Source: Megasphaera elsdenii DSM 20460 (lineage in GTDB: Bacteria > Bacillota > Negativicutes > Veillonellales > Megasphaeraceae). Taken from it: a stretch of 32,000 nucleotides of DNA. The translations under genes were made by a program, and so were the position numbers. The stretch is taken from NCBI RefSeq assembly GCF_003010495.1, contig NZ_CP027570.1, forward strand, positions 1,200,001 through 1,232,000, given 5' to 3'. Position 1 is the first letter of the stretch. Each line of letters starts with the position of its first letter. Below the pieces are notes generated by a model. The model made no database searches and was not told the origin of the DNA. It was given only the letters and a program-made list of their open reading frames with translations. This document shows, piece after piece, positions 4,554 through 30,390 of the stretch.

Positions 4554-4870
4554 AATAGTGTCTTAGACAGTTAGGTCTAAGAGCAAGAGATGTTTGTCAA
4601 GTGTTTCTTGACGAATTTATTAATAATATGAAGCTTCATATTGTTAATAAATAATGCTTCTAGTATTATAACCAATACGAAGAAGAACATGAATGTATCG
4701 AATGTGATTGAACATGATACAGTAATGTTAATCGGGAACATTTGAATCACCTCTAGGATTATCATAGCATAATTCGGGATATTTCTTTGGCAATTGCAGT
4801 TGATGCACCAGAGGACAGTATACCCATCGGTTATAAGGATATTGCCACCTTGACCGATGGGTTTTATTAT
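4554..4870 (+). ncRNA. Candidate structured non-coding RNA / 5' leader of the reverse transcriptase
   Basis: ~310 nt lie between the promoter and the RT SD. Structures seen: an 8-bp hairpin at 4561-4568/4575-4582; a 7-bp stem at 4584-4590/4604-4610; a 19-bp-arm palindrome at 4615-4652 centred on AAGCTT; a hairpin at ~4656-4684; and a 9-bp GC stem at 4822-4830/4854-4862 followed by TTTTATT. The exact ends are unknown. Confidence 0.4.
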
Positions 4871-4891
4871 ATATATAGGAGATTATGGTGT

Positions 4892-6298
4892 ATGGATATG
4901 GAATTCGACGCATTTCGAAAAGAAAGTACGGGTAAAGCATATGCTCATTTCGGAACACGATGCACATTGAAAGATGACTGGGTGTGGAAATATGTGACTG
5001 TTCCACAAAATATTGAGACGCATAAATTTTTTCCGTTCATTTCATTTGAAAAAGATTATACGAAATATAATAGTCGTGACAAGAAGCTTAAAGTTAAAAA
5101 TCGATTATTGTGTTATGCGACACATTTGGATCGCTGCATCTATCAGTATTATTCGTTTTTATTAAATAATTATTACAATAAACGAGTTGAAAATAATGGC
5201 ATAGATAAGGTTGCTGTGGCATATCGGACTGATTTACACAAGAGTAATATTCATTTTGCTAAAGAAGTATTTGATTTTATAAAAAATCAAGGTTCGTGCT
5301 ATGTAATTGTTGGTGATTTTAAATCTTTTTTTGACTCTTTGGATCATAGATATTTAAAACAGCGATTGTGTGATTTACTTGGGGTAGATAGGCTTTCAGA
5401 GGATTGGTATGCTGTCTATAAGAGTATTACAAAGTATGCAGAATGTCGAATTGAAGATATTGCTTATTTCTTGGGGAAAAAGTATTCTCCTCAAGAATAT
5501 AAGGATATAAATAAGTGCTTTAAATTAATGGGCACAAAGCAATTTCATAAATTTAAAAAGCAGATATTTCGTAATTTACGTGAAAGTGATGACGATAAGA
5601 CTGCTTTTCATTCAGCTATTGAGAAGAATAAAAAGTCATATGGAATACCACAAGGTTCTTCGATTAGTGCGGTTTTAGCTAATGTTTATATGCTTGACTT
5701 TGACAAAAACATTTATAATTATATTCAATCATATGATGGATTTTATATGAGATATTGTGATGATTTTATTATTGTATTCCCCTCATCCAATAAGGAAGAA
5801 TTTTTGTCAAAATATAAGAAGATTCGAGAATTCATTGATAATATTCCAAGGCTGAAATTGGAAAAGCAGAAAACCCAAATTTATGAGTATCGAAATCAAT
5901 CTATCATTAACCGATTTTCGTATATCTCGGATAGTCCAGAGGAACGACCGAAGCAGCGGATTGATTATTTGGGATTTTCTTTTGATGGTCAAAAAGTTAC
6001 TGTCCGTGATAAGACTTTATCGAAATACTATTATCGAATGTATCGGAAAGTAAAGTCTGCGAAGTATTGGTCACTTCGGAAAAAACGTGTGCAGACTAAA
6101 GGGTTGTATCAACTATACTCTGCTCATGCGAACTGGAGCGATTCACAAAGTCAAAATCCCAAGAAAAAGAACGGAAATTTTTTAACCTATGTACAGCGTG
6201 CAGAAAAAGAGTTTGGAAAAGATGAATTGATAGACCGAGGGACTTCTCGTCACATGGTAAAAATTAAACGTGCCATTGCTAAATGGGGCAAGACCTAA
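4892..6298 (+). CDS. Stand-alone reverse transcriptase (UG/Abi/DRT-like, subtype unassigned)
   Basis: RT motifs are present in order: NRLLCYATHLDRCIYQYY, VAVAYR, VIVGDFKSFFDSLDH, YGIPQGSSISAVLANVYMLDFD, YMRYCDDFIIVF (YCDD codons 5753-5764), and IDYLGFSFDG. AGGAG at 4877-4881 sits 10 nt before ATG 4892. The ORF-track start at 4787 would read through the leader hairpin. There is no maturase/En domain. Confidence 0.88.
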   Translation: MDMEFDAFRKESTGKAYAHFGTRCTLKDDWVWKYVTVPQNIETHKFFPFISFEKDYTKYNSRDKKLKVKNRLLCYATHLDRCIYQYYSFLLNNYYNKRVENNGIDKVAVAYRTDLHKSNIHFAKEVFDFIKNQGSCYVIVGDFKSFFDSLDHRYLKQRLCDLLGVDRLSEDWYAVYKSITKYAECRIEDIAYFLGKKYSPQEYKDINKCFKLMGTKQFHKFKKQIFRNLRESDDDKTAFHSAIEKNKKSYGIPQGSSISAVLANVYMLDFDKNIYNYIQSYDGFYMRYCDDFIIVFPSSNKEEFLSKYKKIREFIDNIPRLKLEKQKTQIYEYRNQSIINRFSYISDSPEERPKQRIDYLGFSFDGQKVTVRDKTLSKYYYRMYRKVKSAKYWSLRKKRVQTKGLYQLYSAHANWSDSQSQNPKKKNGNFLTYVQRAEKEFGKDELIDRGTSRHMVKIKRAIAKWGKT

Positions 6299-6357: not shown

Positions 6358-6920
6358 ATGATAGCGTCAATAGATGAAAATAAAGTAAACGAATATTTAG
6401 AGGATAATAAAAAGAGAATTGGGGATAGTTTCAGTTCTACACAGCCTGGAACGGTTGAAATCAAAGAAATTATTGGGGGAAAAAACAAAGACTTTCCAGA
6501 TCAAGATGGAGTTATTGATAGTTCTATGACAACGTATGGCAGATATTGCAGTGAAGATAAGATCATAAAAATTAATACCGAAGCTATAGCCCAAAAGCTA
6601 GAAGATATGAGAAATTCATTGTACCATCAATATGAAAAAACTTCCCAAAGTGACAAAAAAATTTATATAAAAGTAATAAAAAATCTTTATATAAATTTAT
6701 TGATTTAATTCTTTTACATGAATATGCACATGCTTATCAAAATCAAATTGAAGGCAAAAAGATGGAAAAAAATAACTATGAGTTAGAAGTAGAAGCAGAT
6801 GAAATAAGCAAAAGAATTTTTATGAAAGATTATAAAGGTACTCCAGATGAAATAACAGAGATGTTGTTGGATACATTCGAAGAACATCATGAGTATTTAC
6901 AGAATGTGATAAAGAAGTAG
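6358..6920 (+). pseudogene. ImmA/IrrE-like Zn-metallopeptidase (HExxH), split by a frameshift at an A7 run
   Basis: Frame 1 (6358-6708) ends shortly after the A7 run at 6655-6661. Frame 3 is open from 6654 to the TAG at 6918-6920 and encodes LLHEYAHAYQNQIEG...ELEVEADEISKRIFM (HExxH plus a downstream E..EAD). An A7-to-A8 change would fuse the two into ~187 aa. AAGGAAGG SD lies before ATG 6358. Confidence 0.55.
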
Positions 6921-7401: not shown

Positions 7402-8298
7402 ATGAATCGAAAACCGATACCTGAAAATGTTAAGCGTAGATTATGGGCTGAATCAATGGGACGTTGTATGAATCCAGCTTGTAGAGAAAATTTATTTATA
7501 GATGATAATGATATCATGGAAAAAGCGCATATTAATGCGTATTTTGAAACTGAAGATAATTCATATGAAAATTTAATAATATTATGCCCTAATTGTCATA
7601 AGAAATTTGATAAAACCAATCAGATCAGTATACAAACTGTTAAAGAGTGGAAAAAAATTAGACGAGAGGAGTTAGAAAGGTTTTTTTCTATTAAATTTAA
7701 ATCTTTTGATAGACTAAAAGAAAAAGTAGAACCGATATTGAGGGAAAATTATGATATATACAAGAATTACTATTTAAATGAGAATAAAACTTTGTGGAAG
7801 AAATTCGAACCTAAAATATTGGTGAATAATGAAATTCTAAAATCATTGTTCAAAAACAATTGTAATTTATTTCCAGATTATCCAAATAAAGATTACTCAA
7901 ACTTAGAAGTGATTCAAACCTTCATAACCCATGTCAATGAGTTTAAAAATACTAGAGGCGACGAAGAAAAACAAAGACAGGTGCTTTTTCCTCAAGAAAT
8001 AAATTCTATTTTTGGTATTACGCCAGTAAGTGGCTCTATTATACTTGGCGCGGAATCATTGGAAGAATTAATAAAGGTATTAAGGAGAAAAGGGCGGTTT
8101 GAATCTATCATGTTAGGAATAGATAAGCCATATATATTATTGAAAAGTGGGGGAAAAATATTTGTAGATGATACACCAAGATTACGGCAATTGTATTTTA
8201 ATAATTACTGCTTTAGAAAAACAGGGGTTAGATTACAGAACCTGAATTTTGCTTTGAGCTGTTTAAAATCTAGAAACGTGCCTTTTTTCATATACTAA
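7402..8298 (+). CDS. HNH endonuclease domain protein with an uncharacterised ~220-aa C-terminal domain
   Basis: N-terminal HNH/Zn-finger signature CMNPAC...EKAHINAY...YENLIILCPNCHKKFDK. No clear SD precedes ATG 7402. Confidence 0.7.
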   Translation: MNRKPIPENVKRRLWAESMGRCMNPACRENLFIDDNDIMEKAHINAYFETEDNSYENLIILCPNCHKKFDKTNQISIQTVKEWKKIRREELERFFSIKFKSFDRLKEKVEPILRENYDIYKNYYLNENKTLWKKFEPKILVNNEILKSLFKNNCNLFPDYPNKDYSNLEVIQTFITHVNEFKNTRGDEEKQRQVLFPQEINSIFGITPVSGSIILGAESLEELIKVLRRKGRFESIMLGIDKPYILLKSGGKIFVDDTPRLRQLYFNNYCFRKTGVRLQNLNFALSCLKSRNVPFFIY

Positions 8299-8308
8299 TC
8301 CTAACTCA

Positions 8309-8545
8309 TTGAGAGAAATTGAAGTGAATGGTACTAAGATAATTTTTGTTTATAAATATTGTTTGAGCAAAGCTTTTTTATTTAGAATGAATCCGGAACC
8401 TGGCTGTATAGTTGTAAATTTGCATAACTGGAATGGAAAAGCCTGTATATCTCAAGAAGCATTAAATTTCGCAGCGTCTCTTGACACTAGATTGTTTACA
8501 ATCGAAGACTTTTTTAAATATATCAATGAAATTAGAAAAAAATAA
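8309..8545 (+). CDS. Hypothetical 78-aa protein (TTG start), possibly a detached C-terminus of the HNH gene
   Basis: The ORF starts 10 nt after the HNH stop in another frame and overlaps the next gene by 20 nt. I recognise no motif. Confidence 0.3.
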   Translation: MREIEVNGTKIIFVYKYCLSKAFLFRMNPEPGCIVVNLHNWNGKACISQEALNFAASLDTRLFTIEDFFKYINEIRKK

Positions 8546-8837
8546 TATAATTAATCTGATTAAGCAAAATATGAACCTATTTGGGGCATTTGATGAAGTT
8601 TATGTTTTTGGCTCTATTTTAGACTCAGAGAAGTATTCAAATGATATTGATATTTTGTTATTATATTCCAATTTTTCATATGGGATTCTAGCAAGCATAA
8701 GTAGCATTATTAAATGTATAGAACACTTAACATCTTACCCAGTGGATATAACTGCTTTAAGTTTTGAAGAAGAAAAAGAGGTTGATTTTATAGGTAGATT
8801 AGATAAAAAATATATATGTATAAAGCGATGCCGATAG
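8526..8837 (+). CDS. Minimal nucleotidyltransferase (MNT/Pol-beta fold, MntA-like)
   Basis: GS...DxD signature VYVFGSILDSEKYSNDIDILLLY. ATG 8526 (MKLEKNN) is a more plausible start than the ORF-track start at 8481. There is no HEPN partner downstream; the IS remnant begins at 8921. Confidence 0.65.
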   Translation: MKLEKNNIINLIKQNMNLFGAFDEVYVFGSILDSEKYSNDIDILLLYSNFSYGILASISSIIKCIEHLTSYPVDITALSFEEEKEVDFIGRLDKKYICIKRCR

Positions 8838-8920
8838 TTTATGTGTAAATGTCAATGAGAAAGTGAGCCAGGTGATTACGAATTTTTGAGTCACAATGAT
8901 TATGGAGAATTAACTTTGAT

Positions 8921-9728
8921 GGTAGTGTCAAGATTCTTTCGCAAATTCATTTCATCCGCCAGTAAATATCGTAATCAGATATATGGATTTTCCTCGTCAT
9001 TTGGCTGCTCAATTTTCATCTTGAATAGATGCTCCATGTCCATATAGCGTTTTGAGCCCCATTCCGAGGCGGCAACATGACGAAGTCTGGCACAGACGAG
9101 CATCAAAGCACTGTTGCCGTCAGGAAAGGCACCAATGGCCCGTGTACGGCGGCGTATCTCGCGATTCACCCGTTCTGTTAGGTTATTTGTGCCTTTCATG
9201 CCTTCTGCGGCTTCGAGAATCTCACGGAACCCGTCTTTATTGGAGACCTTTGTGCCCCAAAGCAATTCGGTGATATCTTCGACACGGCGCACGGATACGC
9301 CGGCCAGGTACATCTCAATAAGGGCTTCCTCGACAGAGCATTCACGGCGTTTATAGCGCTCGATGATGGCCGTCTCAAACTGGATGCCCTTGAGCTTCGG
9401 CACGCGTAATCTGACTTCGCCGGAAGTCGTGCCAAAAATCCGCTCGTAATGACCGGAACGGTAGCCCTTACGGTCTCCCGTTCGCTCATACTTGCCAGCG
9501 CGGACGAGTTCATCCGCCTCGTGGTCGAGCAGGGCGTTCAGTGTTTCCTCTACACTGTTGCGTACAAGATCCTTTAAATTATTCTTTATAAGATCCTCAT
9601 TAAGTTGTATAATATTACCAGATATGGTCTATTGCCTCCTTACGAATTTTGTGTGGTAACTTAATTGTACTAGCGGCAATAGACTATGTCTATTTTTATG
9701 AAATTGAATTTGCGAAATATATTTTACC
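8921..9728 (-). mobile_element. Internally deleted IS256-family element (~0.8 kb) with imperfect terminal inverted repeats
   Basis: Left end ggtagtgtcaagattctttcgcaaattcatttcat (8921-8955) pairs with the reverse complement of the right end, ggtaaaatatatttcgcaaattcaatttcat (9698-9728). GC is visibly higher than in the flanks. No target-site duplication was seen. Confidence 0.75.
8975..9628 (-). pseudogene. IS256-family (Mutator-type) transposase remnant lacking the DDE core and a start codon
   Basis: A single open frame runs from 9628 down to 8975. It encodes the N-terminal part (...RSGHYERIFGTTSGEVRLRVPKLKGIQFETAIIERYKRRE...GVSVRRVEDITELLWGTKVS) joined directly to the C-terminal part (NNLTERVNREIRRRTRAIGAFPDGNSALMLVCARLRHV). 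AGGAGG at 9635-9640 is followed by ATA rather than ATG at 9625. Confidence 0.75.
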
Positions 9729-9734
9729 TTATCG

Positions 9735-10124
9735 GATGTTATCCGTGGTTCTGATCTGGTTGTTTCTGCAGTTACGAGGGCAACTGAAAATTTTGCATCA
9801 GATGACTGCTATAAACCTGGAGTGACGGTTATCCCTGTTTGCACATTAGGATTTCAGAACTGTGATTTGTTCTTTGATTAGGTATTTACAGATGAAATTG
9901 AACAGATCAGAGGATTCAAATATTTTGATAAGTTTAAGTCTGTTCATAATGTGACAGATGTTTTATTGGGAAGAGTACCAGGACGTTTAAATGATAAGCA
10001 GCGTATCCTGGTTTATAATTATGGCGTAGGCATTCATGATCTGTATTTTGCGGAACAGTTTTATCATGCAATACAAGGTACAGACATTGAATATAATTTT
10101 TGTAAAGAAAAGTATTTTATCTGA
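9735..10124 (+). pseudogene. Ornithine cyclodeaminase/mu-crystallin family gene, 3' fragment with an in-frame stop
   Basis: The translation begins DVIRGSDLVVSAVTRATENFASDDCYKPGVTVIPV... immediately after the IS right end. There is an in-frame TAG at 9879-9881, and the frame ends at TGA 10122-10124. Confidence 0.5.
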
Positions 10125-10161
10125 TCATGGATACTGCTGAAGTACACAGGGAGGAATGCAT

Positions 10162-11255
10162 ATGCGTATCTGCATAGTCGGCGGTGGTAATATCGGTACT
10201 TTATTAGTGGGTGAAGCAGCCGCGGATGGTCATGACGTAACTATGTATACATCCAGACCGGACAGCTGGCATAATCATATTGTAGTAAAAGATATTCAGG
10301 GACTCATCATCGCAGAGGGGGATATCTACACAATTACAGATGATATGTCTTTGGCTTTAAAAAATCAGGACTATATCTGTGTGACACTTCCATCTATTGC
10401 TCAGAAGTCTTTTGCAGATAAGGCTGCGGCTTATGTAAAGCCCGGCACTCGATTTGTGATGATTCCTGGTTATGGCGGCACAGAATTCCTTATGCAATCG
10501 GTGCTGAAGCAAGGAGCAGTCCTTATTGGCTTTGAACGGGTACAGGCTATTGCCCGGTTGATTCGTTATGGACAGAGTGTTTGTATGAGGGGCCGTAAAA
10601 ACGAAATTCAACTAGCATCCTATCCCCAGTGCCCTGAAGATGAAATAAAAACTATTGCAAATGATATGGAAGTTCTTTTTCATCTGCCAGTAAAAATCAT
10701 GCCTAATTACCTGAATATAACATTTACGCCGTCCAATCCGGTATTGCATACCTCCCGTTTGTATTCAATGTTTAAAGACTATCAGGAGGGCGTGTATTAT
10801 CCGAGTCATCTTCCTTTCTATGATGGCTGGACTGATTTTTCTTCTAAAGTTCTCTTTCGATTGGATGATGAAGTTCAGCTTCTCTGCTCTACGCTTAATC
10901 ATTTAGACCTTGATGGTGTCAATCTTTAAGGTTGCATTATGAAAGTCCGACAATATCAGCGATGACCTATAAATTAACCCATATAGATTCATTCCATGGA
11001 ATTATGTCTCCCATGAAAGAAACCGATAAAGGATGGATTCCGGATTTTAATAATCGTTATTTCAGCTGTGATTTTAATTATGGCTTAGAAATTCTTTATC
11101 AGTTTGCCCAAATCTGTCATCTAAAAGTACCTGCGATGGACACTGTAATGCAGTGGTATCGTAAGGTAACTCATAGTAATAAGACGATAGTAGATATTGA
11201 AGAATATGGAATTCATTCTATAGATGATATTTATATTAAGTATCTGAGTAAATAG
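10162..11255 (+). pseudogene. NAD(P) opine (octopine/nopaline-type) dehydrogenase family gene, frameshifted
   Basis: N-terminus MRICIVGGGNIGTLLVGE (Rossmann fold). GGGAGG at 10149-10154 favours ATG 10162. The frame changes at ~10914-10932 (TAA 10927-10929) and continues as ...HYESPT...GWIPDFNNRYFSCDFNYGLEIL in frame 3 to 11255. Confidence 0.55.
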
Positions 11256-11423: not shown

Positions 11424-11475
11424 AACGTTTCACTTATTCTAGAAACGTTGACAAGAGTGTAGAAAATGATATATT
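11424..11475 (+). promoter_or_regulatory. Promoter with an overlapping 8-bp inverted repeat (operator-like) upstream of the Panacea pair
   Basis: AACGTTTC (11424-11431) and GAAACGTT (11442-11449) form an inverted repeat. TTGACA (11448-11453), 16-nt spacer, then TGaTATATT (TATATT 11470-11475). Confidence 0.45.
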
Positions 11476-11527
11476 AATTGTAAAATGTAGACAAAATAGC
11501 TATTTTTTGAAAGGGGAGAAACAGCGT

Positions 11528-12001
11528 ATGTATACGTGGAAAGGTGTGGCGGACTGGATTTTACAAAATATTGATAATGTAACTGATAAAAAATTACAGA
11601 AGTTGATGTATTTTGCATATGCGTGGTATTTAGTATTTTTCAATGAATCCGCAAATGAAATAGAAAATCGTTTGTTTGATGAACACTTTGAAGCATGGGT
11701 TCATGGGCCTGTTTTACCTGCCTTATACCAAGATGTAAAAGAATTTCATAGTGATGATATTCCCAAAAATTATTTTGAAAAGTATAGAGAACGTTTTTCG
11801 ACAGATACATTGAATTTATTTGAACAAATAAAAAAAGTGTATGGTGCATATAATGGAAATCAGTTAGAAAGCATTGTCCATCAAGAAGATCCGTGGATTC
11901 ATGCACGTAAAGGTTGTAGCAGTTATGAAATATGTAAAAATATCATTACGGATGGGGAAATTTTTAGCTATTATATAAAAAGAATTGTTGATGAATCATG
12001 A
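11528..12001 (+). CDS. Panacea-domain (DUF4065, SocA/PanA-like) antitoxin
   Basis: KLQKLMYFAYAWYLVFFNE ... FEAWVHGPVLPALYQ matches the DUF4065 pattern. The AAGGGGAG SD favours ATG 11528. The stop overlaps the next start (ATGA at 11998-12001). Confidence 0.75.
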   Translation: MYTWKGVADWILQNIDNVTDKKLQKLMYFAYAWYLVFFNESANEIENRLFDEHFEAWVHGPVLPALYQDVKEFHSDDIPKNYFEKYRERFSTDTLNLFEQIKKVYGAYNGNQLESIVHQEDPWIHARKGCSSYEICKNIITDGEIFSYYIKRIVDES

Positions 12002-12570
12002 CAAAAAGAAAAAATGTATTGAATCAGACTACGCCTATTAACGAAGTAAAAAATCCAATCAAGCCTTATGAAGATAAAGAGAAAAGAATTGTTTTTGATA
12101 TTTCTTTTAAAGGTCTTTTCTATTTTGTTGATTGTAAGGGCTTTACTAATAGACTTAGAAATGAAAAAGAATTTAGCGAGAAATTCTCTCAATTCATCAC
12201 ACTTATTCACAAACTGGAAAAGAAAGAGTTTGGGCAAGAATTAATTCAGGAGCCAGGAATGAGGCACTGTCATCTCATAAAGCAAGAAGAAAAGAGAGAA
12301 TTAGTTCACAAATGTTTTGTGGAATCACTGAAAGAATGCGTGAGTCAACCAGATCAGCGAGAAGATTACTGGGCGCAGATTACCGAAGGGGAAAAATTAT
12401 ATCAGATTGGATTTGAAAAAGAATGGAGATTCATTGGGATATACAAGGAAAATAGGAATTTATTTTACATTTTATTGTTCGATTGGCATCATTCTCTCTT
12501 TCCTGATGAACGGAGAAATACTATTAATCTTAAACTGATGAAATATAGTTTATTTGGTAGAAATAAATGA
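11998..12570 (+). CDS. Candidate PanT-type toxin, 190 aa, family unassigned
   Basis: Translationally coupled (ATGA overlap) to the Panacea gene. The C-terminal stretch LYQIGFEKEWRFIGIYKENRNLFYILLFDWHHSLFP is loosely reminiscent of RelE/ParE-type folds, which is weak evidence. Confidence 0.45.
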   Translation: MTKRKNVLNQTTPINEVKNPIKPYEDKEKRIVFDISFKGLFYFVDCKGFTNRLRNEKEFSEKFSQFITLIHKLEKKEFGQELIQEPGMRHCHLIKQEEKRELVHKCFVESLKECVSQPDQREDYWAQITEGEKLYQIGFEKEWRFIGIYKENRNLFYILLFDWHHSLFPDERRNTINLKLMKYSLFGRNK

Positions 12571-12672
12571 TACTTAGAATTAAACAAATATTGTAGTAAA
12601 GTAATATGGATTTATATTAATCCGAAAGCTGACGGTAGCAAAGAATTCATATTATAAATTAGGAGTGGTGAT

Positions 12673-13893
12673 ATGTTATTAGAGTATACATGTTCTAACT
12701 ATAAATCCATAAAAGATAGGGTACTTTTTTCGTTGCTGGCAGATAAAGATATTTCTTCTCATACCCCAAATACTGTGCTTTATGACAATAAAAAAATTTT
12801 AAAATCTGCCGTAATTTATGGCGCTAATGGCTCTGGAAAAACTAATTTTTTAAATTCAATGAAATTCATGAAATTATTAGTGGCTACTAGCATTCGCAAA
12901 CAGCCTGGCGAAGGCATTCCTCAACTTTCGCATAAACTTTCTGCATCTAATGTTCCGACGGTGTTTACTGTACAGTTCATTCGTCATGGAATTCGATATT
13001 CGTATGGTTTTTCTGTTTTGCATAATATGATTGATGGGGAGTATTTGTACTACTTTCCCAAAAAGCGACTTGTAAAAATTTTTGAACGTGATGGAATGAA
13101 TATTATTCCTGGAAATAGATATAAAAATTCGTTTGATGTGAGCCAGAGCATATTAAAAGAAAATAGGTTGTTTTTATCTTGTGCTGCTAATTACACAAAT
13201 ATTAAAGAAATAGAAGAGGCGTTTTTGTTTTTTGTGGAAGATGTAGTTATTTATGATAATAATGAAAATGATTGGACTGGCTCTTCTATTCATTTGATGA
13301 GAGAAAATAAAGTAATTAAACATAAGTTTATATCATTATTACAGGAATTTGGTACAGGCATACAAAATATTAGCAGTAAGACTGAAAAAGTAAAAATTGC
13401 TACGGAACCTTTACCAGATGAAATAAAAAAGTTTTTGCCTAAAGTAGCAAATCGTATTACGATTAAAGTTGATTATGGTAAATTTCAAACTGACTTGATG
13501 TCGGAAGAATCAGATGGTGTTCAAAAATTATTTGAGTTATTGTGTCCTATTTTAGATATTTTAGCTAAAGACAAAGTCTTAATTTGTGATGAATTAGAGA
13601 ATAGTTTACATGAAATTTTAGTGGCCCATATTATAAAACTATTTCATGATAATGAATCTAAAGCGCAACTTATATTTTCAACGCATGATACAAGTCTGTT
13701 AAGTAATAATATTTTTCGCAGAGATCAGATTTGGTTTACTCAACTTACTCAAGACAGAGCAACAGATTTGTATTCTCTGATAGAAATTAAAAATATAGAT
13801 AATTTAGAGAACCTTGAAAAAGGGTATATTAGTGGTAAATACGGAGCGATTCCGTTCTTGAATATCTCATCTATTAGTAAATTGGAAAAGTAA
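12673..13893 (+). CDS. AAA_21/AAA_15-type (ABC-like) ATPase
   Basis: Walker A VIYGANGSGKTNF, Walker B/D-loop VLICDELENSLHEIL and H-loop QLIFSTHDTSLL. AGGAGTGG SD lies before ATG 12673. Confidence 0.8.
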   Translation: MLLEYTCSNYKSIKDRVLFSLLADKDISSHTPNTVLYDNKKILKSAVIYGANGSGKTNFLNSMKFMKLLVATSIRKQPGEGIPQLSHKLSASNVPTVFTVQFIRHGIRYSYGFSVLHNMIDGEYLYYFPKKRLVKIFERDGMNIIPGNRYKNSFDVSQSILKENRLFLSCAANYTNIKEIEEAFLFFVEDVVIYDNNENDWTGSSIHLMRENKVIKHKFISLLQEFGTGIQNISSKTEKVKIATEPLPDEIKKFLPKVANRITIKVDYGKFQTDLMSEESDGVQKLFELLCPILDILAKDKVLICDELENSLHEILVAHIIKLFHDNESKAQLIFSTHDTSLLSNNIFRRDQIWFTQLTQDRATDLYSLIEIKNIDNLENLEKGYISGKYGAIPFLNISSISKLEK

Positions 13894-13910
13894 AGGGGAG
13901 GGAGCGATAA

Positions 13911-14651
13911 ATGTTGTTAGAACCAAATTATAAGCTTACTCCTAGGAATAAAAATGTTAGAGAAAAATGTCCATCTAAAACTGTGATGAAATTTTCTCTA
14001 AAAGAAATAAAACAACATTTTGATGAGAGTTTAGCAATGCTTCGCAATCAAACATCTATTGCGCATGGTTTTTATGAAAATCGAAATGTAGAGGAAGCAA
14101 AATATATATGGCGCACACAAATTGTATTATTAGAAAGTGCTTATGATTTTTATCTACATGAAATTACTAAGTATGGGTTATGCCGGATATACGAAAAACA
14201 ATGGGATGAAACTCCAAAATATAAAAACATAAATATTAACATGGAAACATTGTCGGAAGCTTTAATTAGTAATGGAAGTTTGGACTGGTTTTTAAAATTC
14301 ACAAATGACCATTATAGTATCAAAACATTAACATCTTATCAGTCTTTTCGTGATCAATGTAATTTGTTGGGGATTGATTATAGAGAAATTGCAGATGAAG
14401 TGTTCTATGATAGGAATTCTCGCAAATCAACAGAAGAAAAATTAGAAAATGTCATAACTGAGCTTTTTAAACGAAGAAATCGAATTGCGCATCAATATGA
14501 TCGTGAATATGCTGATGCTGAACCTCAAAATATTGATGAAAAAACAGTAGAAGATTTTTTGCAAAGAATCTCTGAAATTGTGGATTCTATTTATCGAGCA
14601 GTACTTAGAAAAGATGGAATTTTTAATGATTTTACTTGCAATGATAAATAA
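13911..14651 (+). CDS. HEPN-domain protein (RNxIAH motif), putative RNase partner of the ATPase
   Basis: C-terminal LFKRRNRIAHQYD fits the HEPN Rx4-6H motif. The AGGGGAGGGA SD begins directly after the ATPase stop (13891-13893). Confidence 0.55.
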   Translation: MLLEPNYKLTPRNKNVREKCPSKTVMKFSLKEIKQHFDESLAMLRNQTSIAHGFYENRNVEEAKYIWRTQIVLLESAYDFYLHEITKYGLCRIYEKQWDETPKYKNININMETLSEALISNGSLDWFLKFTNDHYSIKTLTSYQSFRDQCNLLGIDYREIADEVFYDRNSRKSTEEKLENVITELFKRRNRIAHQYDREYADAEPQNIDEKTVEDFLQRISEIVDSIYRAVLRKDGIFNDFTCNDK

Positions 14652-16741: not shown

Positions 16742-17788
16742 TTGGGATATGAATGTTTATTGGCATTAGATGAAAAATATGGAACTGAATTGAAGGCTGC
16801 TACTTTGATTTTAGGTAATGGCTCCAGCATTTCTTACAGTTCAAAGTTTGCCTATTCCAGTTTATATGATGAAGCTGCTTTTACTGATGAAGAAAAACAA
16901 CTTTTTGATAAATTTGATACGAATAATTTCGAATATATTTTGCGAAAGTTATTTCAAGCTAGTGAAGTAAATAAAGTTCTAGAACTTGATCAAGGAAAAA
17001 AGGTTAATTCTGTGTATGAAAATATTCGATTGAAATTGATTGAGACAATAAGATGTATTCATCCAGTTATGAGCGATATTGATCCAGCTACTGTTCATGA
17101 TAAGGTATTTCGAATCATGATGGATTATAGATATATCATTGATTTGAATTATGACTTCTTATTGTATTGGATTTTAAGTAACAATGGTTTTTTATCTTCT
17201 TTTCCAATTGAAGAGAATGGGGCGAGAAGAAACGTATTCCAAGGGAGTCCTTTTCAATATTTTTATGATGGTTTTCGGAAAAATTGTGGAACTCATCTTT
17301 CTTTTGACTATGATTTTGTGGAAGAAGAGATAAGGAAAGAAGAGAAAACAGGAATATTTTATCCGCATGGAAATTTGTTATTCGTTCGAGATAAATTCGC
17401 TGGAGAAACATTAAAAATAAAAAGTGATGGCGATTTATTTGACGTTGTTGATAAAGATTGGGAAAAGGGATATACTCCACTCTTTATTAGTGAAGGAACA
17501 GCTAATAAAAAAATGAATAGCATACGGAGTATTTCTTACTTGAATTATGTTTATAATGAAATACTTAGCAACCTTACTGATTTTATAGTTATTTACGGCT
17601 GGTCAATGGGAGACTGCGATACTCATTTAATAAAGAAAATATTTTCCAATAAAAAAATTAAGACAGTTGCAGTTTCCATTTATAATGAAAATAGGGAGTT
17701 ACAAGCAATACAAGAAGAAAAAATAGCAATAGAAAACAAGATAAAACACTATAATAAAGAAATAGCGGTTGAATTCTGGGAATGCTGA
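16742..17788 (+). CDS. DUF4917 family (SIR2-like fold) protein
   Basis: The motif series LILGNGSSIS, NYDFLLYW, FYPHGNL, PLFISEGTANKKMNSIRSISYL and VIYGWSMGDCDTHL matches my recollection of DUF4917. The start is uncertain: TTG 16742, while the ATG at 16732 is out of frame. Confidence 0.55.
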   Translation: MGYECLLALDEKYGTELKAATLILGNGSSISYSSKFAYSSLYDEAAFTDEEKQLFDKFDTNNFEYILRKLFQASEVNKVLELDQGKKVNSVYENIRLKLIETIRCIHPVMSDIDPATVHDKVFRIMMDYRYIIDLNYDFLLYWILSNNGFLSSFPIEENGARRNVFQGSPFQYFYDGFRKNCGTHLSFDYDFVEEEIRKEEKTGIFYPHGNLLFVRDKFAGETLKIKSDGDLFDVVDKDWEKGYTPLFISEGTANKKMNSIRSISYLNYVYNEILSNLTDFIVIYGWSMGDCDTHLIKKIFSNKKIKTVAVSIYNENRELQAIQEEKIAIENKIKHYNKEIAVEFWEC

Positions 17789-18243: not shown

Positions 18244-21200
18244 ATGTGCTTGAAGCAGATATTGCAAAAAATAAAGAACATGACAAAATCTAATAAAAAT
18301 GAAATGAAGGAAGACCATAAAAATAAATATAATGATCTTGCTCCTATAAATACTTTATCACAGGATGATACCTATATTCAGGCTTTAAATTGGGCGTTTA
18401 TGAATCCGTCTATTAAAAATATTGCATTAACTGGAGCATATGGATCCGGTAAAAGTAGTATTTTACTTTCATTTTTGGAACAATATGAAAACATAAGAAA
18501 AAAGACTTTATCCATATCTTTGGCCAGCTTTATTGATAAATTACAGGAGAATCAAGATAATAATTCTACTGAAGATAAGATTATCAAGCTTGATATTAAT
18601 GAAATTGAAAAAAGTATTTTAAAGCAACTTTTTTATAAAGTAGCTCCTTCAAAAATACCACAAAGCCGTTTTCAAAGGATTCGCATTATAAAAGGAAAAA
18701 AGATATTTCTTGAGATTATAGCTGTAACGATTTTTATTTTTTTCTGTACTTATTTTTTTCGTCCTCAATACTTGGATTATTTAATCAGCTCAATTAGTTA
18801 TGGGTATCAACGACATTTTTCTGCTTTAGAAGAAGATTTACTTACCATAGTTTCCTATATTACTTTTATTGGTCTTATATTAGGGGGAATTTTTTTTATA
18901 GAAAAGATAGTGAAATGGATTTTAATATCCTTTCATTTGAAAAAAGTAACCATTCAAGGTTCAATTCAAGCAGAAACAGGAAATGATGAAGAGTCCATAT
19001 TTGATAAAAATATGGATGAAATTATTTATTTTTTTGAGAGTACTCGCTATACTACTATATTTTTTGAAGACCTTGACCGTCTGCAGAATAACAGATTGTT
19101 TGTGCACTTAAGGGCTCTTAATAATATGTTGAACCAATGTGATGTCTTAGAACGGCCGATTCGGTTTGTATATGCTGTTAAAGATGATATTTTTGAAAAA
19201 GAAGACCGTACTAAATTTTTTGAATTTATTTTGCCAGTGATTCCTATTATTAATGCTACGAATTCAGGGGAAGAGATTCGCCGATGGGTAACAGATCACA
19301 ACTATGGAAAAATTTTTGATGAGGATTTTATCGATGATATTGCTCCATATATTGATGATATGCGTGTGCTTCAAAATATTTTTAATGAATATGAGATTTA
19401 TAGAGAGCAAATTATCAATAGGACTGGATTAAATTTAGATCCAAAGAAATTGTTTGCAGTTATTGCATTTAAAAATATCTATCCATCGGATTTTTCTGAT
19501 TTACAAAATGAAAAGGGGATAGTAAAGCAAGCCTTTTACGAAAAAGAGAAAATCCTTAAGCAAAAAATTAAAGATTTAAATGACCTGATTGAAAAAGAAG
19601 AATCAACGTTTAAAAATTTGAAAGATGATGAGTTGCAAAGTGTAAATGCGATTAAAAGCGCAATGCTTGCTGATTTTGTTGATTGGAAAGGATTTGCAGA
19701 GAGTTTTAATGTCTATTCATGGAAAGATAATGAAAAATCATCTAGTTCAATTTTATTTGACTTCAAAACAATAATGAATCCAAATTTCGATTTAAATGAA
19801 TTAAAAAATATTAATGAATGCTATATACACTCTCCTGGGATAGGCAATGTTACAAAAATGTCTCTTTATGAAAAAGTCGAAAAATATTATCCAGTATGGA
19901 AACGTCATTATGAATATGATGGGAAAATTGAAGAACTTAAACTTGAAATCAATACTACACGTGACAAAATAAAAAAGTACCGCAATATGACGATGAAAGA
20001 AATTTTAGATTGCGATGAAAATGATGTTCTCTCCGAGCAAATCAAGCAAAATAAACTATTGGTATTTCTGTTGCGTAATGGTTATCTAGATGAAACCTAT
20101 GCTTCTTATATCAACTATTTCCAGGCAAACAGTACAACTTATAGCGATAGAAATTTCATCTTGTCGGTGAAAAACAGGGAACCTTTGCCTTTTGACTATA
20201 GATTGGTAAAAATTTCTCAAGTCATTAAAAAATTAAAGCTTGGGGATTTTGACTATCCGGCAGTGTATAATTTTGATTTACTTAATGAAATGTTGATGCA
20301 TGCGGAATCCTACGAAGAGAAATTAGAAGAATTCATGAAACAATTGGGGAAAGAGGATAAAAACAGTTGGAATTTTATAGATGAATTTGTTGGATATGCC
20401 CAATCACCGGCACTTTTTGTAAAATATTTGGCACACTATTGGTCAAATATGTGGAATTTTATTCTTGACTCTTCCTTATTAGAACAGCGTAAGGTATTTT
20501 ATTTGAAGTTGTTAATTGATGATGCAAAACTTGATGACCTTTGTCTCATGAATAAATCTAATTCATTAAGTACGTATTTTAGAGAAACTCATGATATTTT
20601 ACAGAAGCTTCATGATGTTGATGAAGAAAAAATGATTGCTCTTATGGGACGGTTGCAAATTAAATTTAGCCAAGCTGAATTAACTGGAGTCAGTGAAAAG
20701 TTGGTACAATATATCATACAACAACGAATGTATATTTTGAATCCGTATATGCTAAATCAGATTATTTCCTGGAATTTTCCGCAAAAGGAAAATGCAGCAT
20801 TGAGGGAAAATTATACGGTGATTTTGGAAGCAGATATAAAGCCCGTACTGGAATACATAGATGACAATATTGAAGAATACGTAAAAAATGTTACTTTATC
20901 AAAAGAAAATACTCAGGAAAGTAATAGAGCGGTAGTGGGATTATTAACCAAAATTATCGACGATAAAGAACTTTGCTGTGATGTAATTAGGCACCAGGGG
21001 AAAATAGAGTTCAACGACTTGGCAGATTGTAATGGTGAACAGACGGAAAAATCAAAAGACTCTGTAAAGGCAATTTGGGATGTTATCTTGGAAGAAAACA
21101 AAGTTGTGGCTTCCTGGAGTAATGTTCGGGTCTACTGGAAGCACTTTGGAGTCACTAAAAATCTAGTTTCTTTTGTCGATGTAAACTATGCAAAGTTAGA

Positions 21201-21954
21201 CAAATTGGATAATGAAGATGATAACTCAAACTTCGTTGTTCAATTCATTAAATCAGATTTGGTTGATGTTTCTTTGCTGAAAAAAATAAAATTTGCCTTA
21301 GTCATTACTGATATGGGAGATATTATTAATAAGATTCCAGAAGATAAAGTTGAAGTTTTGGTAGAAAAAAATGTTATCTCGTTTACGTTAGATAATTTAC
21401 AATTACTGCATGATTATTTGGATGATGAAAGAATTATGGCTAAATTTATTGTTTCAAATCAAGATTTGTTCTTTGCGAAAATTTCTGAAGACAGTGAAGC
21501 AGTGGATTATATTGTAAAAGATCAGAATTTAATTTTACACTTGATTTATCAAGATGAGATCAGTACTGAAAATAAAAATAAATTAATTGCATCAATAGAT
21601 GCAGACACTATTGATATAGAAATTGCAAAAAAGATAATTGAGATGAAGTTAAAAATTAATAGAGAGCAATTTTATGCAATTTGGAATCAAGTTGATCAAA
21701 ATTTGAAAGTGAAGTTATTCTATCAGTATATGGAATTGTTAACAGTTGATGATTTTCAAGATATTTTTCAACAGCTGAAAAATCAGAGTTCTGCTTTTGA
21801 AAAGTTAGCTCAAAGGGAGGCAAGAAAGCAAGTAAAACTTTCCAATACACCTGATAATATCAAACTGGCAAAGTGTTTAAGAAACAAGGGATATATTACT
21901 AGTTTTAACGAAATTGATACGAAAATTGAAATGCGAATCAAGAAATCACAGTAA
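18244..21954 (+). CDS. YobI/KAP-family P-loop NTPase, 1236 aa, with two TM helices inserted in the NTPase domain
   Basis: Walker A GAYGSGKS (18433-18456). Two hydrophobic helices follow (IFLEIIAVTIFIFFCTYFF and IVSYITFIGLILGGIFFI), then Walker B TTIFFEDLDR. The remaining ~900 aa are helical or coiled-coil. AGGAG at 18232-18236 precedes ATG 18244. Confidence 0.7.
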   Translation: MCLKQILQKIKNMTKSNKNEMKEDHKNKYNDLAPINTLSQDDTYIQALNWAFMNPSIKNIALTGAYGSGKSSILLSFLEQYENIRKKTLSISLASFIDKLQENQDNNSTEDKIIKLDINEIEKSILKQLFYKVAPSKIPQSRFQRIRIIKGKKIFLEIIAVTIFIFFCTYFFRPQYLDYLISSISYGYQRHFSALEEDLLTIVSYITFIGLILGGIFFIEKIVKWILISFHLKKVTIQGSIQAETGNDEESIFDKNMDEIIYFFESTRYTTIFFEDLDRLQNNRLFVHLRALNNMLNQCDVLERPIRFVYAVKDDIFEKEDRTKFFEFILPVIPIINATNSGEEIRRWVTDHNYGKIFDEDFIDDIAPYIDDMRVLQNIFNEYEIYREQIINRTGLNLDPKKLFAVIAFKNIYPSDFSDLQNEKGIVKQAFYEKEKILKQKIKDLNDLIEKEESTFKNLKDDELQSVNAIKSAMLADFVDWKGFAESFNVYSWKDNEKSSSSILFDFKTIMNPNFDLNELKNINECYIHSPGIGNVTKMSLYEKVEKYYPVWKRHYEYDGKIEELKLEINTTRDKIKKYRNMTMKEILDCDENDVLSEQIKQNKLLVFLLRNGYLDETYASYINYFQANSTTYSDRNFILSVKNREPLPFDYRLVKISQVIKKLKLGDFDYPAVYNFDLLNEMLMHAESYEEKLEEFMKQLGKEDKNSWNFIDEFVGYAQSPALFVKYLAHYWSNMWNFILDSSLLEQRKVFYLKLLIDDAKLDDLCLMNKSNSLSTYFRETHDILQKLHDVDEEKMIALMGRLQIKFSQAELTGVSEKLVQYIIQQRMYILNPYMLNQIISWNFPQKENAALRENYTVILEADIKPVLEYIDDNIEEYVKNVTLSKENTQESNRAVVGLLTKIIDDKELCCDVIRHQGKIEFNDLADCNGEQTEKSKDSVKAIWDVILEENKVVASWSNVRVYWKHFGVTKNLVSFVDVNYAKLDKLDNEDDNSNFVVQFIKSDLVDVSLLKKIKFALVITDMGDIINKIPEDKVEVLVEKNVISFTLDNLQLLHDYLDDERIMAKFIVSNQDLFFAKISEDSEAVDYIVKDQNLILHLIYQDEISTENKNKLIASIDADTIDIEIAKKIIEMKLKINREQFYAIWNQVDQNLKVKLFYQYMELLTVDDFQDIFQQLKNQSSAFEKLAQREARKQVKLSNTPDNIKLAKCLRNKGYITSFNEIDTKIEMRIKKSQ

Positions 21955-22214: not shown

Positions 22215-23729
22215 ATGGACATCAAGGATTTTCAAGGGATTGAAGCAAGTTTTTTAGATTACAAAATTTTTTTAGAGGCAGAAAAACCTAAAAGTTGGTT
22301 AAAATCAGTTTCGGCATTTGCAAATACGAAGGGCGGACATATTTTATTTGGAGTTACAGATAAAACGCACGAAGCCATCGGTTTAGATGATGTGCAGAAG
22401 GCAGCTAGCAAAATCGCAGAAATAATTTCAGTTCGAATTAGTCCGAAGGTAAATTATACGATAGATACTTTTCCAGGTACTCGTGAAGGGAAGTTCTGTC
22501 TTGACTTATCTATTTTTCCAGGGCCTCATTATCCTTATTATTACGTGCATGAACAGACTCGGGAATGTTATGTTCGAAGAGGCGATCGCTCTGAACCAGC
22601 GACTACCTTAGAAATTAATACGCTTATTTTGAAAGGTATGAATCAAACGTATGATGCATTGCCGACTTCTTATAAACTAGATGACATTAGCTTTACTTTG
22701 TTAGGTGCAACTTTCAAACAGGAAACTGGAGAAAGTTTTAATTTGCCACAGGATGCAGTTTCCTTGGGGCTGACAACTCCCAGCGGAGAAGTTACCAATG
22801 CGGGATTGTTGCTTTGTGATCAAGGTGTTTTACGACATTCCCGTGTCGTCTGTACGCATTGGAAAGGTAAAGAAAAGGGAGCGATTGATGGAGATGCATT
22901 AGATGATCAGGAGTTTTTTGGAACTAGCCTTATTATGCTTTTGAGTAATACAGAAGCGTTTATACGAAATAATTCAAAAAATCCGTGGACAATTCGGGGA
23001 ATGCGACGAGAAGAGAATAGTGATTATCCTTTTAAGGCAGTTCGCGAAGTTTTGGTAAATGCCTTGATTCATAGAGATTATCAAAATATTGGTGCTGAAG
23101 TACATGTTGACATGTACGATGATCGTATGGAAATATCTTCTCCGGGAGGTATGATGAATGGTAGCCGTATTCAAGATTTGGATTTGAGTATGGTGCCATC
23201 TATGAGAAGAAATGAAATTATTTCAGATATTTTTGGAAGATTGCATTATATGGATCGTCGAGGCAGTGGGATACGGCGGATTATAAATTCATATGCTCAT
23301 TTCAAAATTAAACCGAATTTTTATTCTAATGAGTATTTTTTTCTTGTTTCTCTGCCCAATAGAGGAGTACCATCAAAAATTAAACATACTACGGAAGAAA
23401 CGCAACTTACGAGTGGAGAAACGCAACTTACAAGTGGAGAAACGCAACTTACGAGTGGAGAAATGCAACTTACAGGAGAAAAAATGACGCTTGAAATGTG
23501 GAAGACTAATATACGGCAAAAAACTGGAAATAAGTTTCAACCAAGAACTGTGGATAAACTTGCTAAATTAATGGCGATTTATGAAGATAAGTATCCCTTC
23601 AATCGACAAATTGTAGCGAATCGATTTGAAATAAGCGAAAATGCTGCATCTCGGATACTAAAAAGAGCAATTGAGTGTGGTATTGTTAGGAAAGAGAAAA
23701 AAGGCGTTTACTATTTTCAATTTCCTTAA
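22215..23729 (+). CDS. AlbA_2 (Schlafen-like) + HATPase_c_4 (RecG-C-like) + C-terminal wHTH protein
   Basis: N-terminal KSWLKSVSAFANTKGGHILFGV (AlbA_2), central AVREVLVNALIHRDY...MEISSPGG (HATPase_c_4), and C-terminal ISENAASRILKRAIECGIVRKEKKGVYYF (wHTH). GGAGGG SD is present. Confidence 0.75.
   Translation: MDIKDFQGIEASFLDYKIFLEAEKPKSWLKSVSAFANTKGGHILFGVTDKTHEAIGLDDVQKAASKIAEIISVRISPKVNYTIDTFPGTREGKFCLDLSIFPGPHYPYYYVHEQTRECYVRRGDRSEPATTLEINTLILKGMNQTYDALPTSYKLDDISFTLLGATFKQETGESFNLPQDAVSLGLTTPSGEVTNAGLLLCDQGVLRHSRVVCTHWKGKEKGAIDGDALDDQEFFGTSLIMLLSNTEAFIRNNSKNPWTIRGMRREENSDYPFKAVREVLVNALIHRDYQNIGAEVHVDMYDDRMEISSPGGMMNGSRIQDLDLSMVPSMRRNEIISDIFGRLHYMDRRGSGIRRIINSYAHFKIKPNFYSNEYFFLVSLPNRGVPSKIKHTTEETQLTSGETQLTSGETQLTSGEMQLTGEKMTLEMWKTNIRQKTGNKFQPRTVDKLAKLMAIYEDKYPFNRQIVANRFEISENAASRILKRAIECGIVRKEKKGVYYFQFP
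23397..23478 (+). repeat. In-frame 21-bp tandem repeat (~3.8 units) in the linker of the AlbA_2 gene
   Basis: The gaaacgcaacttacgagtgga units at 23397, 23418 and 23439 plus a partial fourth encode ETQLTSG repeats. Confidence 0.9.
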
Positions 23730-24151: not shown

Positions 24152-24198
24152 GACAGGAGAAATAAGAGATGCTGTAAAGTGTAAGGAGCTGGAGTGTG

Positions 24199-28775: not shown

Positions 28776-28865
28776 TATAATGTTGGAAGAACCCCTCAGT
28801 CAGCTTTGCTGACAGCTCCCCTTCGCAGTGGAGCCTTTTTAAGTCCGACGTAAACTGCATCATTG

Positions 28866-28971
28866 GGCGGGCCGCCAGCCACAGCTGTCCGTTTTGGCAG
28901 CCGTCCTGCGCCTTCCGGTGGTCGGCACTTGACGGGCCAAAAAGGCTTTCAGGACGGCCCCTACAGGGCCC
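28866..28971 (+). repeat. GC-rich REP-like intergenic repeat, copy 1 (copy 2 at 30486-30592)
   Basis: ggcgggccgcc...ctgtccgtt..g...ccgtcctgc.cct.c.g.tggtcgg.ac.tg.cggg....aaaggct.t..g.cg.cccctac aligns over ~105 bp at roughly three-quarters identity. Confidence 0.7.
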
Positions 28972-29033
28972 CGATAGGGACGATTTTTTGCGGTACAATG
29001 AGGGCGATTGTTTTTTGGGATGGGGTGGCATGT

Positions 29034-29486: not shown

Positions 29487-29564
29487 GGGCCAGTAGCCCC
29501 GCAGGTCGCTGTTTGCAGTTCGCAAAAAAAAGTACGGCTAATAGCCGTATGCGTAGGGGCTTTT

Positions 29565-30389: not shown

Positions 30390-30390
30390 A

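Follow-up and report, generated by a model that had tools for sequence, protein, structure and literature searches.

A candidate anti-phage module in Megasphaera elsdenii pairing an AbiLi-family ABC ATPase with a RiboL-PSP-type HEPN protein

What kind of system do an ATPase gene and a HEPN gene form when they lie side by side in a bacterial defence island? The question is raised by a 32,000-nt stretch of Megasphaera elsdenii DSM 20460 (contig NZ_CP027570.1, positions 1,200,001 to 1,232,000; hereafter the window), in which an earlier note, made from the sequence alone, had singled out such a pair as a candidate abortive-infection system. Our analysis indicates that the pair is probably an anti-phage or toxin-antitoxin (TA)-like module. 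We consider it likely that it represents a bicistronic mobile defence module of the AbiL/PARIS design, in which an AbiLi-clade ATP-binding cassette (ABC) ATPase is combined with a small RiboL-PSP-type HEPN protein, a predicted RNase that would be released on infection. The two open reading frames (ORFs) and their Shine-Dalgarno sequences, as read from the sequence, are as follows.

12661-12665, + strand: Shine-Dalgarno sequence of the ATPase gene, AGGAG, 7 nt 5' of the ATG
12673-13893, + strand: ATPase gene, 406 aa, AbiLi-family ABC (Rad50/SMC-head-like) ATPase
13895-13904, + strand: Shine-Dalgarno sequence of the HEPN gene, GGGGAGGGAG
13911-14651, + strand: HEPN gene, 246 aa, RiboL-PSP-type HEPN protein

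Re-reading of the coordinates confirmed the two-gene layout (406 aa, a 17-nt gap at 13894-13910, and 246 aa) and the placement of a Shine-Dalgarno sequence right after the ATPase stop, both described in the earlier note: the TAA codon occupies 13891-13893, and GGGGAGGGAG begins one base later. Because the second gene's Shine-Dalgarno sequence starts one base past the stop of the first, its placement implies that the genes would be co-transcribed and their translation coupled. The bicistronic, ATPase-first order recurs in the relatives, with a median gap of 11 nt over 85 loci as against 17 nt in the window. Both ORFs are judged to be genuine genes rather than chance ORFs, since they score against the AAA_21, AbiLi and HEPN_RiboL-PSP profiles and their motif residues are invariant in the family alignments.

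The ATPase and its HEPN partner

The product of the first gene matched Pfam AAA_21 at 6e-24 (86 bits; cut-off, 27) with intact catalytic motifs, in agreement with the earlier note, which had called it an AAA_21/ABC ATPase. Its match to the PADLOC AbiLi model PDLC02335 (3.1e-84, 281 bits) was far above that to AAA_21, and its matches to the PADLOC models of AriA, PDC-M12A, HEC-01A, MAD3 and PtuA were far weaker than that to AbiLi. The motifs that the earlier note had named in the two proteins (Walker A, Walker B, H-loop and KRRNRIAHQYD) were all present and in frame. Invariance in the ATPase was scored in an alignment of 26 homologues at 55-74% identity (A2).

12820-12843, + strand: Walker A/P-loop, GANGSGKT, residues 50-57; G50, N52, G53, S54, G55 and K56 invariant
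13510-13524, + strand: ABC signature-like motif, SDGVQ, residues 280-284; E278, E279, S280 and G282 invariant
13576-13611, + strand: Walker B and D-loop, VLICDELENSLH, residues 302-313; L303, C305, D306, E307, E309, L312 and H313 invariant
13675-13689, + strand: H-loop, FSTHD, residues 335-339; T337, H338 and D339 invariant
13822-13857, + strand: C-terminal motif, GYISGKYGAIPF, residues 384-395; G384, Y385, G388, K389, Y390, G391, A392, I393 and P394 invariant

SDGVQ may be taken as the ABC signature motif from its position ahead of Walker B, and D306 and E307 of VLICDELENSLH are the predicted catalytic residues. Because the residues of the P-loop, ESxG (278-282), Walker B, D-loop and H-loop are invariant, the ATPase looks catalytically competent. 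Its AlphaFold model (predicted local distance difference test score [pLDDT], 74; predicted template modelling score [pTM], 0.76) matched Rad50 heads, PtuA (from Septu and type I-A retrons) and SMC heads at E values of ~1e-10 to 1e-8, and the protein as modelled is an ABC-type rather than an AAA+ ATPase. The region of GYISGKYGAIPF is predicted to be disordered (pLDDT < 50 in the model) and could be an oligomerisation or partner-docking element. A sequence search of the PDB with the ATPase gave nothing useful, and no coiled-coil, nuclease or DNA-binding domain was recognisable in the protein with Pfam profiles or in the AlphaFold model.

The second protein scored 31.5 bits against HEPN_RiboL-PSP (PF18735), above the Pfam gathering cut-off of 28.4, and its matches to HEPN_MAE_28990 and Abi_C fell below their cut-offs. 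All 20 homologues in our HEPN alignment (A1) matched PF18735 (20/20; best, 1e-11). The profile match and an invariant Rx4H motif bear out the claim of the earlier note that the protein is a HEPN, and the profile supplies the subfamily, RiboL-PSP, that the note had left to be assigned.

13911-13997, + strand: N-terminal tail of the HEPN protein, residues 1-29; predicted disordered (low pLDDT), L9 and R12 invariant
14145-14171, + strand: second conserved block, DFYLHEITK, residues 79-87; D79, H83, E84, I85 and K87 invariant in A1
14469-14501, + strand: HEPN-type motif, KRRNRIAHQYD, residues 187-197
14472-14492, + strand: predicted HEPN catalytic motif, RRNRIAH, R188-H194 (Rx4H, with a polar N after R)

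Within the motif region R189, N190, I192, H194, Q195 and D197 are invariant in A1 and R188 is nearly so; R68, Q70, H36, F37 and E39 are further invariant residues. The motif, which the earlier note had placed at the C terminus, is present but lies in the C-terminal quarter of the protein and not at its very end. The DFYLHEITK block, which may belong to the active site or to a dimer interface, was used as a family-specific search pattern, and the motif RRNxI[AV]HQ recovered 359 confirmed HEPN relatives. In one gut variant of the family, the HEPN gene at L024:5260-5958 (P0147 cluster), R188K accompanies the substitutions E84G and D197G, and R189, N190 and H194 are retained. The N-terminal tail may possibly serve as an ATPase-docking peptide.

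The AlphaFold model of the HEPN protein is all-helical (pLDDT, 87; pTM, 0.82). Because fold searches with it returned no significant match, as detailed below, the second protein is called a RiboL-PSP-type HEPN from its profile match and motif and not from structure. The earlier note would have withdrawn the HEPN assignment if no such fold were found; the assignment holds by sequence profile, although fold comparison alone is not significant.

Conservation of the pair and its relation to AbiL

The pair is conserved as a unit. At all of the HEPN loci that had upstream DNA (16/16), the gene immediately 5' of the HEPN gene was that of the orthologous ATPase, in the same orientation; inspection began with the surroundings of four HEPN homologues and with nine reference-genome loci. 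Scanning IMG/VR and metagenomes added 96 loci, and the ATPase was adjacent in 85 of the 87 with usable upstream sequence, the two exceptions being a 1-kb contig and a locus (L106) in which an IS21 insertion sequence (istA/istB) lies between the genes. The divergent family members P0326 and P0306 also retain the ATPase. Approached from the ATPase side, the nearest homologues (P0025, P0029 and P0043) are all followed by a gene of the HEPN family (hmmsearch E about 1e-95), the products of which have no Pfam match on record. Pairwise identities of the ATPases and of the HEPN proteins were correlated (r = 0.90 over 91 pairs that are not phylogenetically independent), which shows co-inheritance but is not a formal test. 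The HEPN protein evolves faster than the ATPase, the nearest relatives being 52% and 73% identical, respectively. Near-obligate adjacency together with co-divergence is strong evidence that the two genes form one unit, and the neighbourhood on which the earlier note had made its reading depend is borne out at ~100 independent loci.

The HEPN gene was damaged or separated, with the ATPase gene intact, in four independent cases. It was truncated to 92 aa in L021 (4279-4557), was absent beside an IS21 element in Sellimonas catena (L028/L029), was separated from the ATPase gene by IS21 in L106 (1534-3854), and, in Anoxybacillus flavithermus WK1 (L139, 4016-6495), was split in two where an IS605/TnpB element had inserted. 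Since these repeated disruptions spare the ATPase, they suggest, as indirect evidence, that of the two products it is the HEPN protein that carries a cost or is toxic.

A profile search of 1.84 billion cluster representatives retrieved 168 HEPN clusters (50% identity) at E <= 1e-30, 537 at E <= 1e-10 and about 1,000 at E <= 1e-3, almost entirely standalone proteins of 220-250 aa. The much smaller family suggested by a word-indexed search (23 clusters) was rejected as a sensitivity artefact, as the ATPase neighbours and the exhaustive profile search gave hundreds. Three members (P0254, P0291 and P0309) are 350-390 aa long and carry a C-terminal extension of ~130-160 aa past the HEPN domain. The named hosts are Lachnospiraceae, Ruminococcus, Acetatifactor, Oscillospiraceae, Terrisporobacter and Selenomonadaceae, together with Bhargavaea and Anoxybacillus (Bacillales) and one Desulfovibrio metagenome-assembled genome (MAG), and this patchy distribution points to horizontal transfer. 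In the assembly collection, 331 indexed blocks contain the variant consisting of P0043 and its partner, and the members named in its cluster are Lachnospiraceae MAGs. The complete pair was also present on 16 IMG/VR viral contigs. In L044 it lies 1 kb from terminase large subunit and portal genes, in L053 between those for the baseplate hub and Baseplate_J, in L057 next to an integrase gene and in L047 close to that of a tail endopeptidase. Such placement is typical of prophage morons. A tblastn search with the HEPN protein against GenBank phages and PLSDB plasmids gave no match. The family is large, with one gut variant in hundreds of assemblies and copies inside prophages.

The ATPase, when searched against plasmids by tblastn, matched 158 records at 30-39% identity. 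Among the plasmid records that were inspected, the gene downstream of the ATPase was annotated as an 'RloB family protein' in L030, L033, L035, L036 and L037; it was unannotated or hypothetical in L031 and L034 and yet matched PADLOC AbiLii, and one plasmid ATPase gene was named abiLI. Used as controls, the RloB proteins of L030, L031, L033 and L034 matched AbiLii at 1e-21 to 3e-32. The HEPN partners of L016, L024 and L042 matched no PADLOC model, and the window HEPN protein gave no AbiLii match at E <= 1. Against AbiLi, the RloB-linked ATPase of L030 scored 325 bits, the HEPN-linked ATPase of L016 scored 309 and the window ATPase scored 281. In a neighbour-joining tree the HEPN-linked ATPases formed one clade, with the RloB-linked ones outside it. 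The partner classes can be told apart by Walker A, which reads GANGSGK in HEPN-linked and GANASGK in RloB-linked ATPases, and they also differ around Walker B; the C-terminal GYxxGKYGAIP motif, predicted to be disordered, is common to both.

AbiL of Lactococcus lactis (AbiLi plus AbiLii, RloA/RloB-type) accordingly shares with the window pair its ATPase family and its bicistronic, ATPase-first order with a short gap or overlap; however, the second gene of AbiL encodes an RloB/AbiLii TOPRIM protein, whereas that of the window encodes an all-helical HEPN protein and the AbiLii/RloB component is missing. Because AbiLi relatives are RloB-linked and the HEPN-linked ATPases form a separate clade, we read the window pair, from sequence comparison, as an AbiL-type ATPase with a HEPN in place of its former TOPRIM partner. 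A further proposal, towards which we are finely divided and lean slightly to doubt, is that the AbiLi ATPase is an effector-agnostic sensor and that one clade exchanged TOPRIM for a RiboL-PSP HEPN, giving a distinct and unnamed anti-phage system that abounds in human-gut Lachnospiraceae and travels as a moron in their prophages. If this were true, GYxxGKYGAIP and the HEPN N-terminal tail could form a portable docking interface that permits effector exchange.

Other two-gene and fused systems resemble the pair without accommodating it. In PARIS (AriA plus AriB), the effector AriB is a DUF4435/TOPRIM protein, whereas that of the window is a HEPN, with no DUF4435, TOPRIM or AriB match in Pfam or PADLOC; the sole AriA match of the ATPase (3.9e-25), to a model having the length (304) and match coordinates of AAA_21, compares with 3.1e-84 for AbiLi. 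Septu (PtuA plus PtuB) and the PtuAB of type I-A retrons are likewise two-gene ATPase-nuclease systems, and PtuA is among the best PDB neighbours of the ATPase model (8eea, 9n69 and 9e90); however, PtuB is an HNH nuclease, the PtuA sequence match of the window is weak (8e-8), and no HNH match was found in Pfam for the window HEPN protein. PrrC and RloC also combine an ABC ATPase with a HEPN RNase and are abortive tRNases, but their domains, which belong to other ATPase and HEPN subfamilies, are fused in one polypeptide, whereas the window has two separate ORFs, and no AAA_13 match was found in Pfam for its ATPase. PD-T4-2 is a validated two-gene anti-phage system in which an NTPase is the partner of a protein listed under the same Pfam HEPN family, PF18735 (PMC10952713, PMC9519451); its NTPase is a DUF262 (GmrSD_N/ParB-like) protein, in contrast to the AAA_21 ABC ATPase of the window, and the window HEPN protein matched PADLOC PD-T4-2_B only at E = 0.016, in the motif region. 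Membership in PARIS, Septu, PrrC/RloC or PD-T4-2 was rejected, as the required partner or fusion is missing from the window pair.

The pairing itself has been recorded once. NetFlax (Ernits et al., PNAS 2023, PMC10440598) contains a one-sentence computational mention of a HEPN node, M61, linked to the AAA ATPase hub D29, and its dataset includes the A. flavithermus WK1 pair WP_012575561.1|WP_041638689.1 as D29:M61. At the WK1 locus (L139), the ATPase is 88.5% identical to that of L016, which belongs to the same ATPase-HEPN family as the window pair, and the HEPN fragments are 78-86% identical to the L016 HEPN; the ATPase matched the A2 profile at 4e-136 and the HEPN fragments matched the A1 profile at 3e-40 and 4e-15. 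Judged from this locus, D29:M61 is almost certainly the same family as the window pair. Elsewhere, Anantharaman et al. (2013) listed the Ribo L-PSP-HEPN family in two settings only, fused to endoRNase L-PSP and sharing an operon with ParB (PMC3710099). For AAA15/21 defence ATPases, reviews and trees give TOPRIM, RloB, DUF4276, UvrD, DUF262, HNH and reverse transcriptase as partners, to which a guilt-by-embedding study adds NERD and PIN, and for an ABC ATPase with a HEPN they name only the fused PrrC and RloC. The pairing is therefore not wholly new, having been glimpsed computationally in NetFlax, and represents an AbiL-type variant and not a new kind of system. As regards the earlier note, which could match the pair to no named system, the ATPase proved to belong to the named AbiLi family and the pairing to be already listed as D29:M61, while the pair itself fits none of the named systems tested. 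The PADLOC check that the note had proposed returned AbiLi (3.1e-84) for the ATPase; PADLOC v2.0.0 has no model for the HEPN partner.

Proposed function and alternatives

PARIS is, by analogy, the closest mechanistically understood system of the same design and may serve as a template for the mechanism here: its ABC ATPase, AriA, sequesters AriB, and a phage trigger frees the AriB dimer, leading to tRNA cleavage and abortive infection (PMC11464382). Because of this precedent and those of NetFlax D29, the HEPN tRNases and PD-T4-2, we propose that the window ATPase would oligomerise, bind the HEPN protein and hold it as an inactive monomer, in the manner of an antitoxin. On sensing a phage-derived trigger, the ATPase would undergo an ATP-dependent conformational change that frees or activates the HEPN. 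HEPN RNases usually need dimerisation to form their bipartite Rx4H site, and the released subunits would dimerise into such a composite active site and cut RNA. The most likely target would be tRNA anticodon loops, by analogy with PrrC, RloC, AriB and DARNA, with mRNA or rRNA as alternatives; among defence HEPNs, PrrC, RloC and DARNA are anticodon nucleases. Translation would then stop and the infection would abort. Complex formation, the trigger, the RNase activity and its target, the division into sensor and effector, and the abortive phenotype are all modelled here on these better-understood systems.

Several points weigh against the proposal of an ATPase-controlled RNase. A Foldseek search of the PDB with the HEPN model gave no match at E <= 0.001, the output being dominated by helical-bundle noise; the HEPN entries 4nqf and 8xeh appeared only at E values of 0.27-1.5, and 4nqf, which had the highest probability (0.72), reached only E 0.27 with template modelling (TM) scores of about 0.25-0.37. 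The top BFVD match, a phage MAE_28990-like HEPN, was not significant (E 0.063) despite a probability of 1.0 and TM scores of 0.48/0.56. A sequence search of the PDB with the HEPN profile found nothing, and hhalign of the family profile with a single HEPN protein (L019, 217 aa) was not significant (probability 1.9%), though the RN..H motifs were aligned. HEPN domains are sometimes catalytically inactive, as in AbiA (PMC13064643), and in the L024-type HEPN, the gut variant of greatest abundance, two otherwise invariant positions are substituted (E84G and D197G). A consensus scan for promoters and terminators found none belonging to the pair itself: promoter-like sites numbered 17, as against 20.7 expected, and no terminator was found 3' of 14651. 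The mechanistic analogy is drawn from PARIS and not from AbiL itself and so spans a distant relationship, and D29:M61 was listed in NetFlax without test, name or family analysis (PMC10440598).

The non-significant fold searches and the inactive HEPN of AbiA, which serves dimerisation (PMC13064643), would also fit a different arrangement, in which the real effector is the ABC ATPase, whose fold is like that of Rad50 and SMC heads and which would perhaps act on DNA as Rad50, SMC and Lamassu do, the HEPN-like protein being a helical subunit with an adaptor or regulatory role. We regard this as improbable: R189, N190 and H194 are invariant across A1 and RRNxI[AV]HQ recovered hundreds of relatives, the ATPase has neither a coiled-coil nor a recognisable nuclease or DNA-binding domain, and the equivalent partner in the sister clades is a TOPRIM nuclease. 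Greater weight, although still a small one, falls to the view that the pair is purely an addiction module, with the HEPN as toxin and the ATPase as antitoxin, stabilising mobile elements or islands without sensing phage. NetFlax classes D29 AAA ATPases as antitoxins, with neutralisation of toxicity validated for related pairs and demonstrated experimentally for D29-node ATPases against TOPRIM and RNase-like toxins, and one AAA pair was screened against phages without a hit (PMC10440598); the location of the pair on mobile DNA and the recurrent disruption of the HEPN gene agree with such a role. However, a 406-aa ATPase with fully conserved catalytic motifs would make for an elaborate antitoxin, the systems of homologous design (PARIS, AbiL and Septu) act against phage, and the pair lies inside defence islands and at prophage moron positions. 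The TA and abortive-infection readings are not mutually exclusive if PARIS, which behaves as both, is a guide.

It is very unlikely that the pair is an accessory of another system, either a restriction-linked 'Rlo' module for type I restriction-modification (R-M) or a part of the adjacent Panacea TA system. RloA and RloB owe their names to linkage with hsd loci, type I R-M genes enclose one RloB-type relative (L037), a Panacea gene is upstream of the pair in the window and in L001-L003, and it is the Panacea gene that follows the only strong promoter-like site in the vicinity; yet the flanking genes differ in almost every sampled context while the pair is constant, and R-M or Panacea genes are absent from most of these contexts. 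A housekeeping role in RNA processing or quality control is scarcely credible. Some HEPN proteins do have such roles, and RNA-processing HEPNs are discussed in PMC3710099, but the distribution of the pair is patchy and horizontal (Lachnospiraceae, Oscillospiraceae, Bacillales, a Desulfovibrio MAG and prophages), it lies in a low-GC island, and it shows frequent decay and disruption by insertion sequences.

If the proposed defence module is functional, it would constitute a HEPN-armed branch of the AbiL/PARIS/Septu group of ABC-ATPase defence systems and a natural experiment on the exchange of effectors, in which a single sensor family is joined to TOPRIM in one clade and to HEPN in the other. 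Such a swap could help to show which part senses phage and how the effectors are kept silent. Because the HEPN family is large and PADLOC v2.0.0 has no model for this effector, annotating it would change the counts of defence systems in gut Clostridia. The finding is no conceptual surprise, since many nucleases are known partners of ABC ATPases, HEPN proteins often serve as defence effectors and the pairing already appears in NetFlax; its abundance in gut Clostridia and prophages, together with a clean TOPRIM-to-HEPN swap on one sensor chassis, makes the pair a worthwhile experimental target.

The defence island around the pair

The pair lies in a low-GC (about 30%) stretch, with flanks of higher GC content at its 3' end, among the following genes, which form a dense island made up mostly of defence genes.

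4787-6298: DRT2 reverse transcriptase (PADLOC Drt2, 5.5e-142; Pfam RVT_1)
7402-8298: HNH protein
8481-8837: small nucleotidyltransferase, without an obvious HEPN partner
8975-9403, - strand: ORF, transposase-like by eye
10156-10929 and 10932-11255: octopine-dehydrogenase-like gene, split in two adjacent ORFs
11507-12001: Panacea (SocA-like) antitoxin gene (PF13274, 7.8e-16)
11998-12570: 190-aa ORF with no family match, overlapping the Panacea gene by 4 nt
16742-17788: PDC-S21/DUF4917 (1e-78)
18244-21954: Tmn (YobI ATPase; 1.9e-85)
22215-23729: AlbA_2/Schlafen and HATPase_c_4 protein
24196-27510: ietA (4e-37) and ietS (1e-60)
28863-31766: right flank, with VanZ, a 274-aa HATPase_c_4 protein without AlbA_2, and an HD protein

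An unannotated 116-aa ORF (6358-6708) follows the DRT2 gene. The stretch from the HNH gene to the octopine-dehydrogenase-like gene (7402-11255) lies in or beside a patch of 40-45% GC within the 30% GC island, and the split of the latter gene suggests a pseudogene. The Panacea gene and the overlapping 190-aa ORF probably form a TA pair of the PanA type in which the toxin is unclassified. Just upstream of the Panacea gene is the sequence that most resembles a sigma-70 site in this region (11448-11475, 11/12 matches). The Panacea TA was considered as part of the ATPase-HEPN unit and rejected, being absent from most contexts of the pair.

The island is flanked by envelope-polysaccharide genes (MurJ and UDP-glucose dehydrogenase) and by the VanZ/HD genes. 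VanZ and HD genes also flank the pair in its closest relatives (L001 and L018-L020), which marks a defence hotspot with variable cargo. In L018 and L020, a full-length AlbA_2 and HATPase_c_4 gene lies between VanZ and HD. The window thus contains one full copy (22215-23729) and, in the 274-aa HATPase_c_4 protein without AlbA_2, an apparently truncated second copy. In L019 (6150-7929), a GmrSD_N (DUF262) fragment, a 204-aa ORF and a 217-aa HEPN_MAE_28990/RiboL-PSP protein are encoded directly downstream of the ATPase-HEPN pair, an arrangement that resembles PD-T4-2 and would place two HEPN-based modules side by side.

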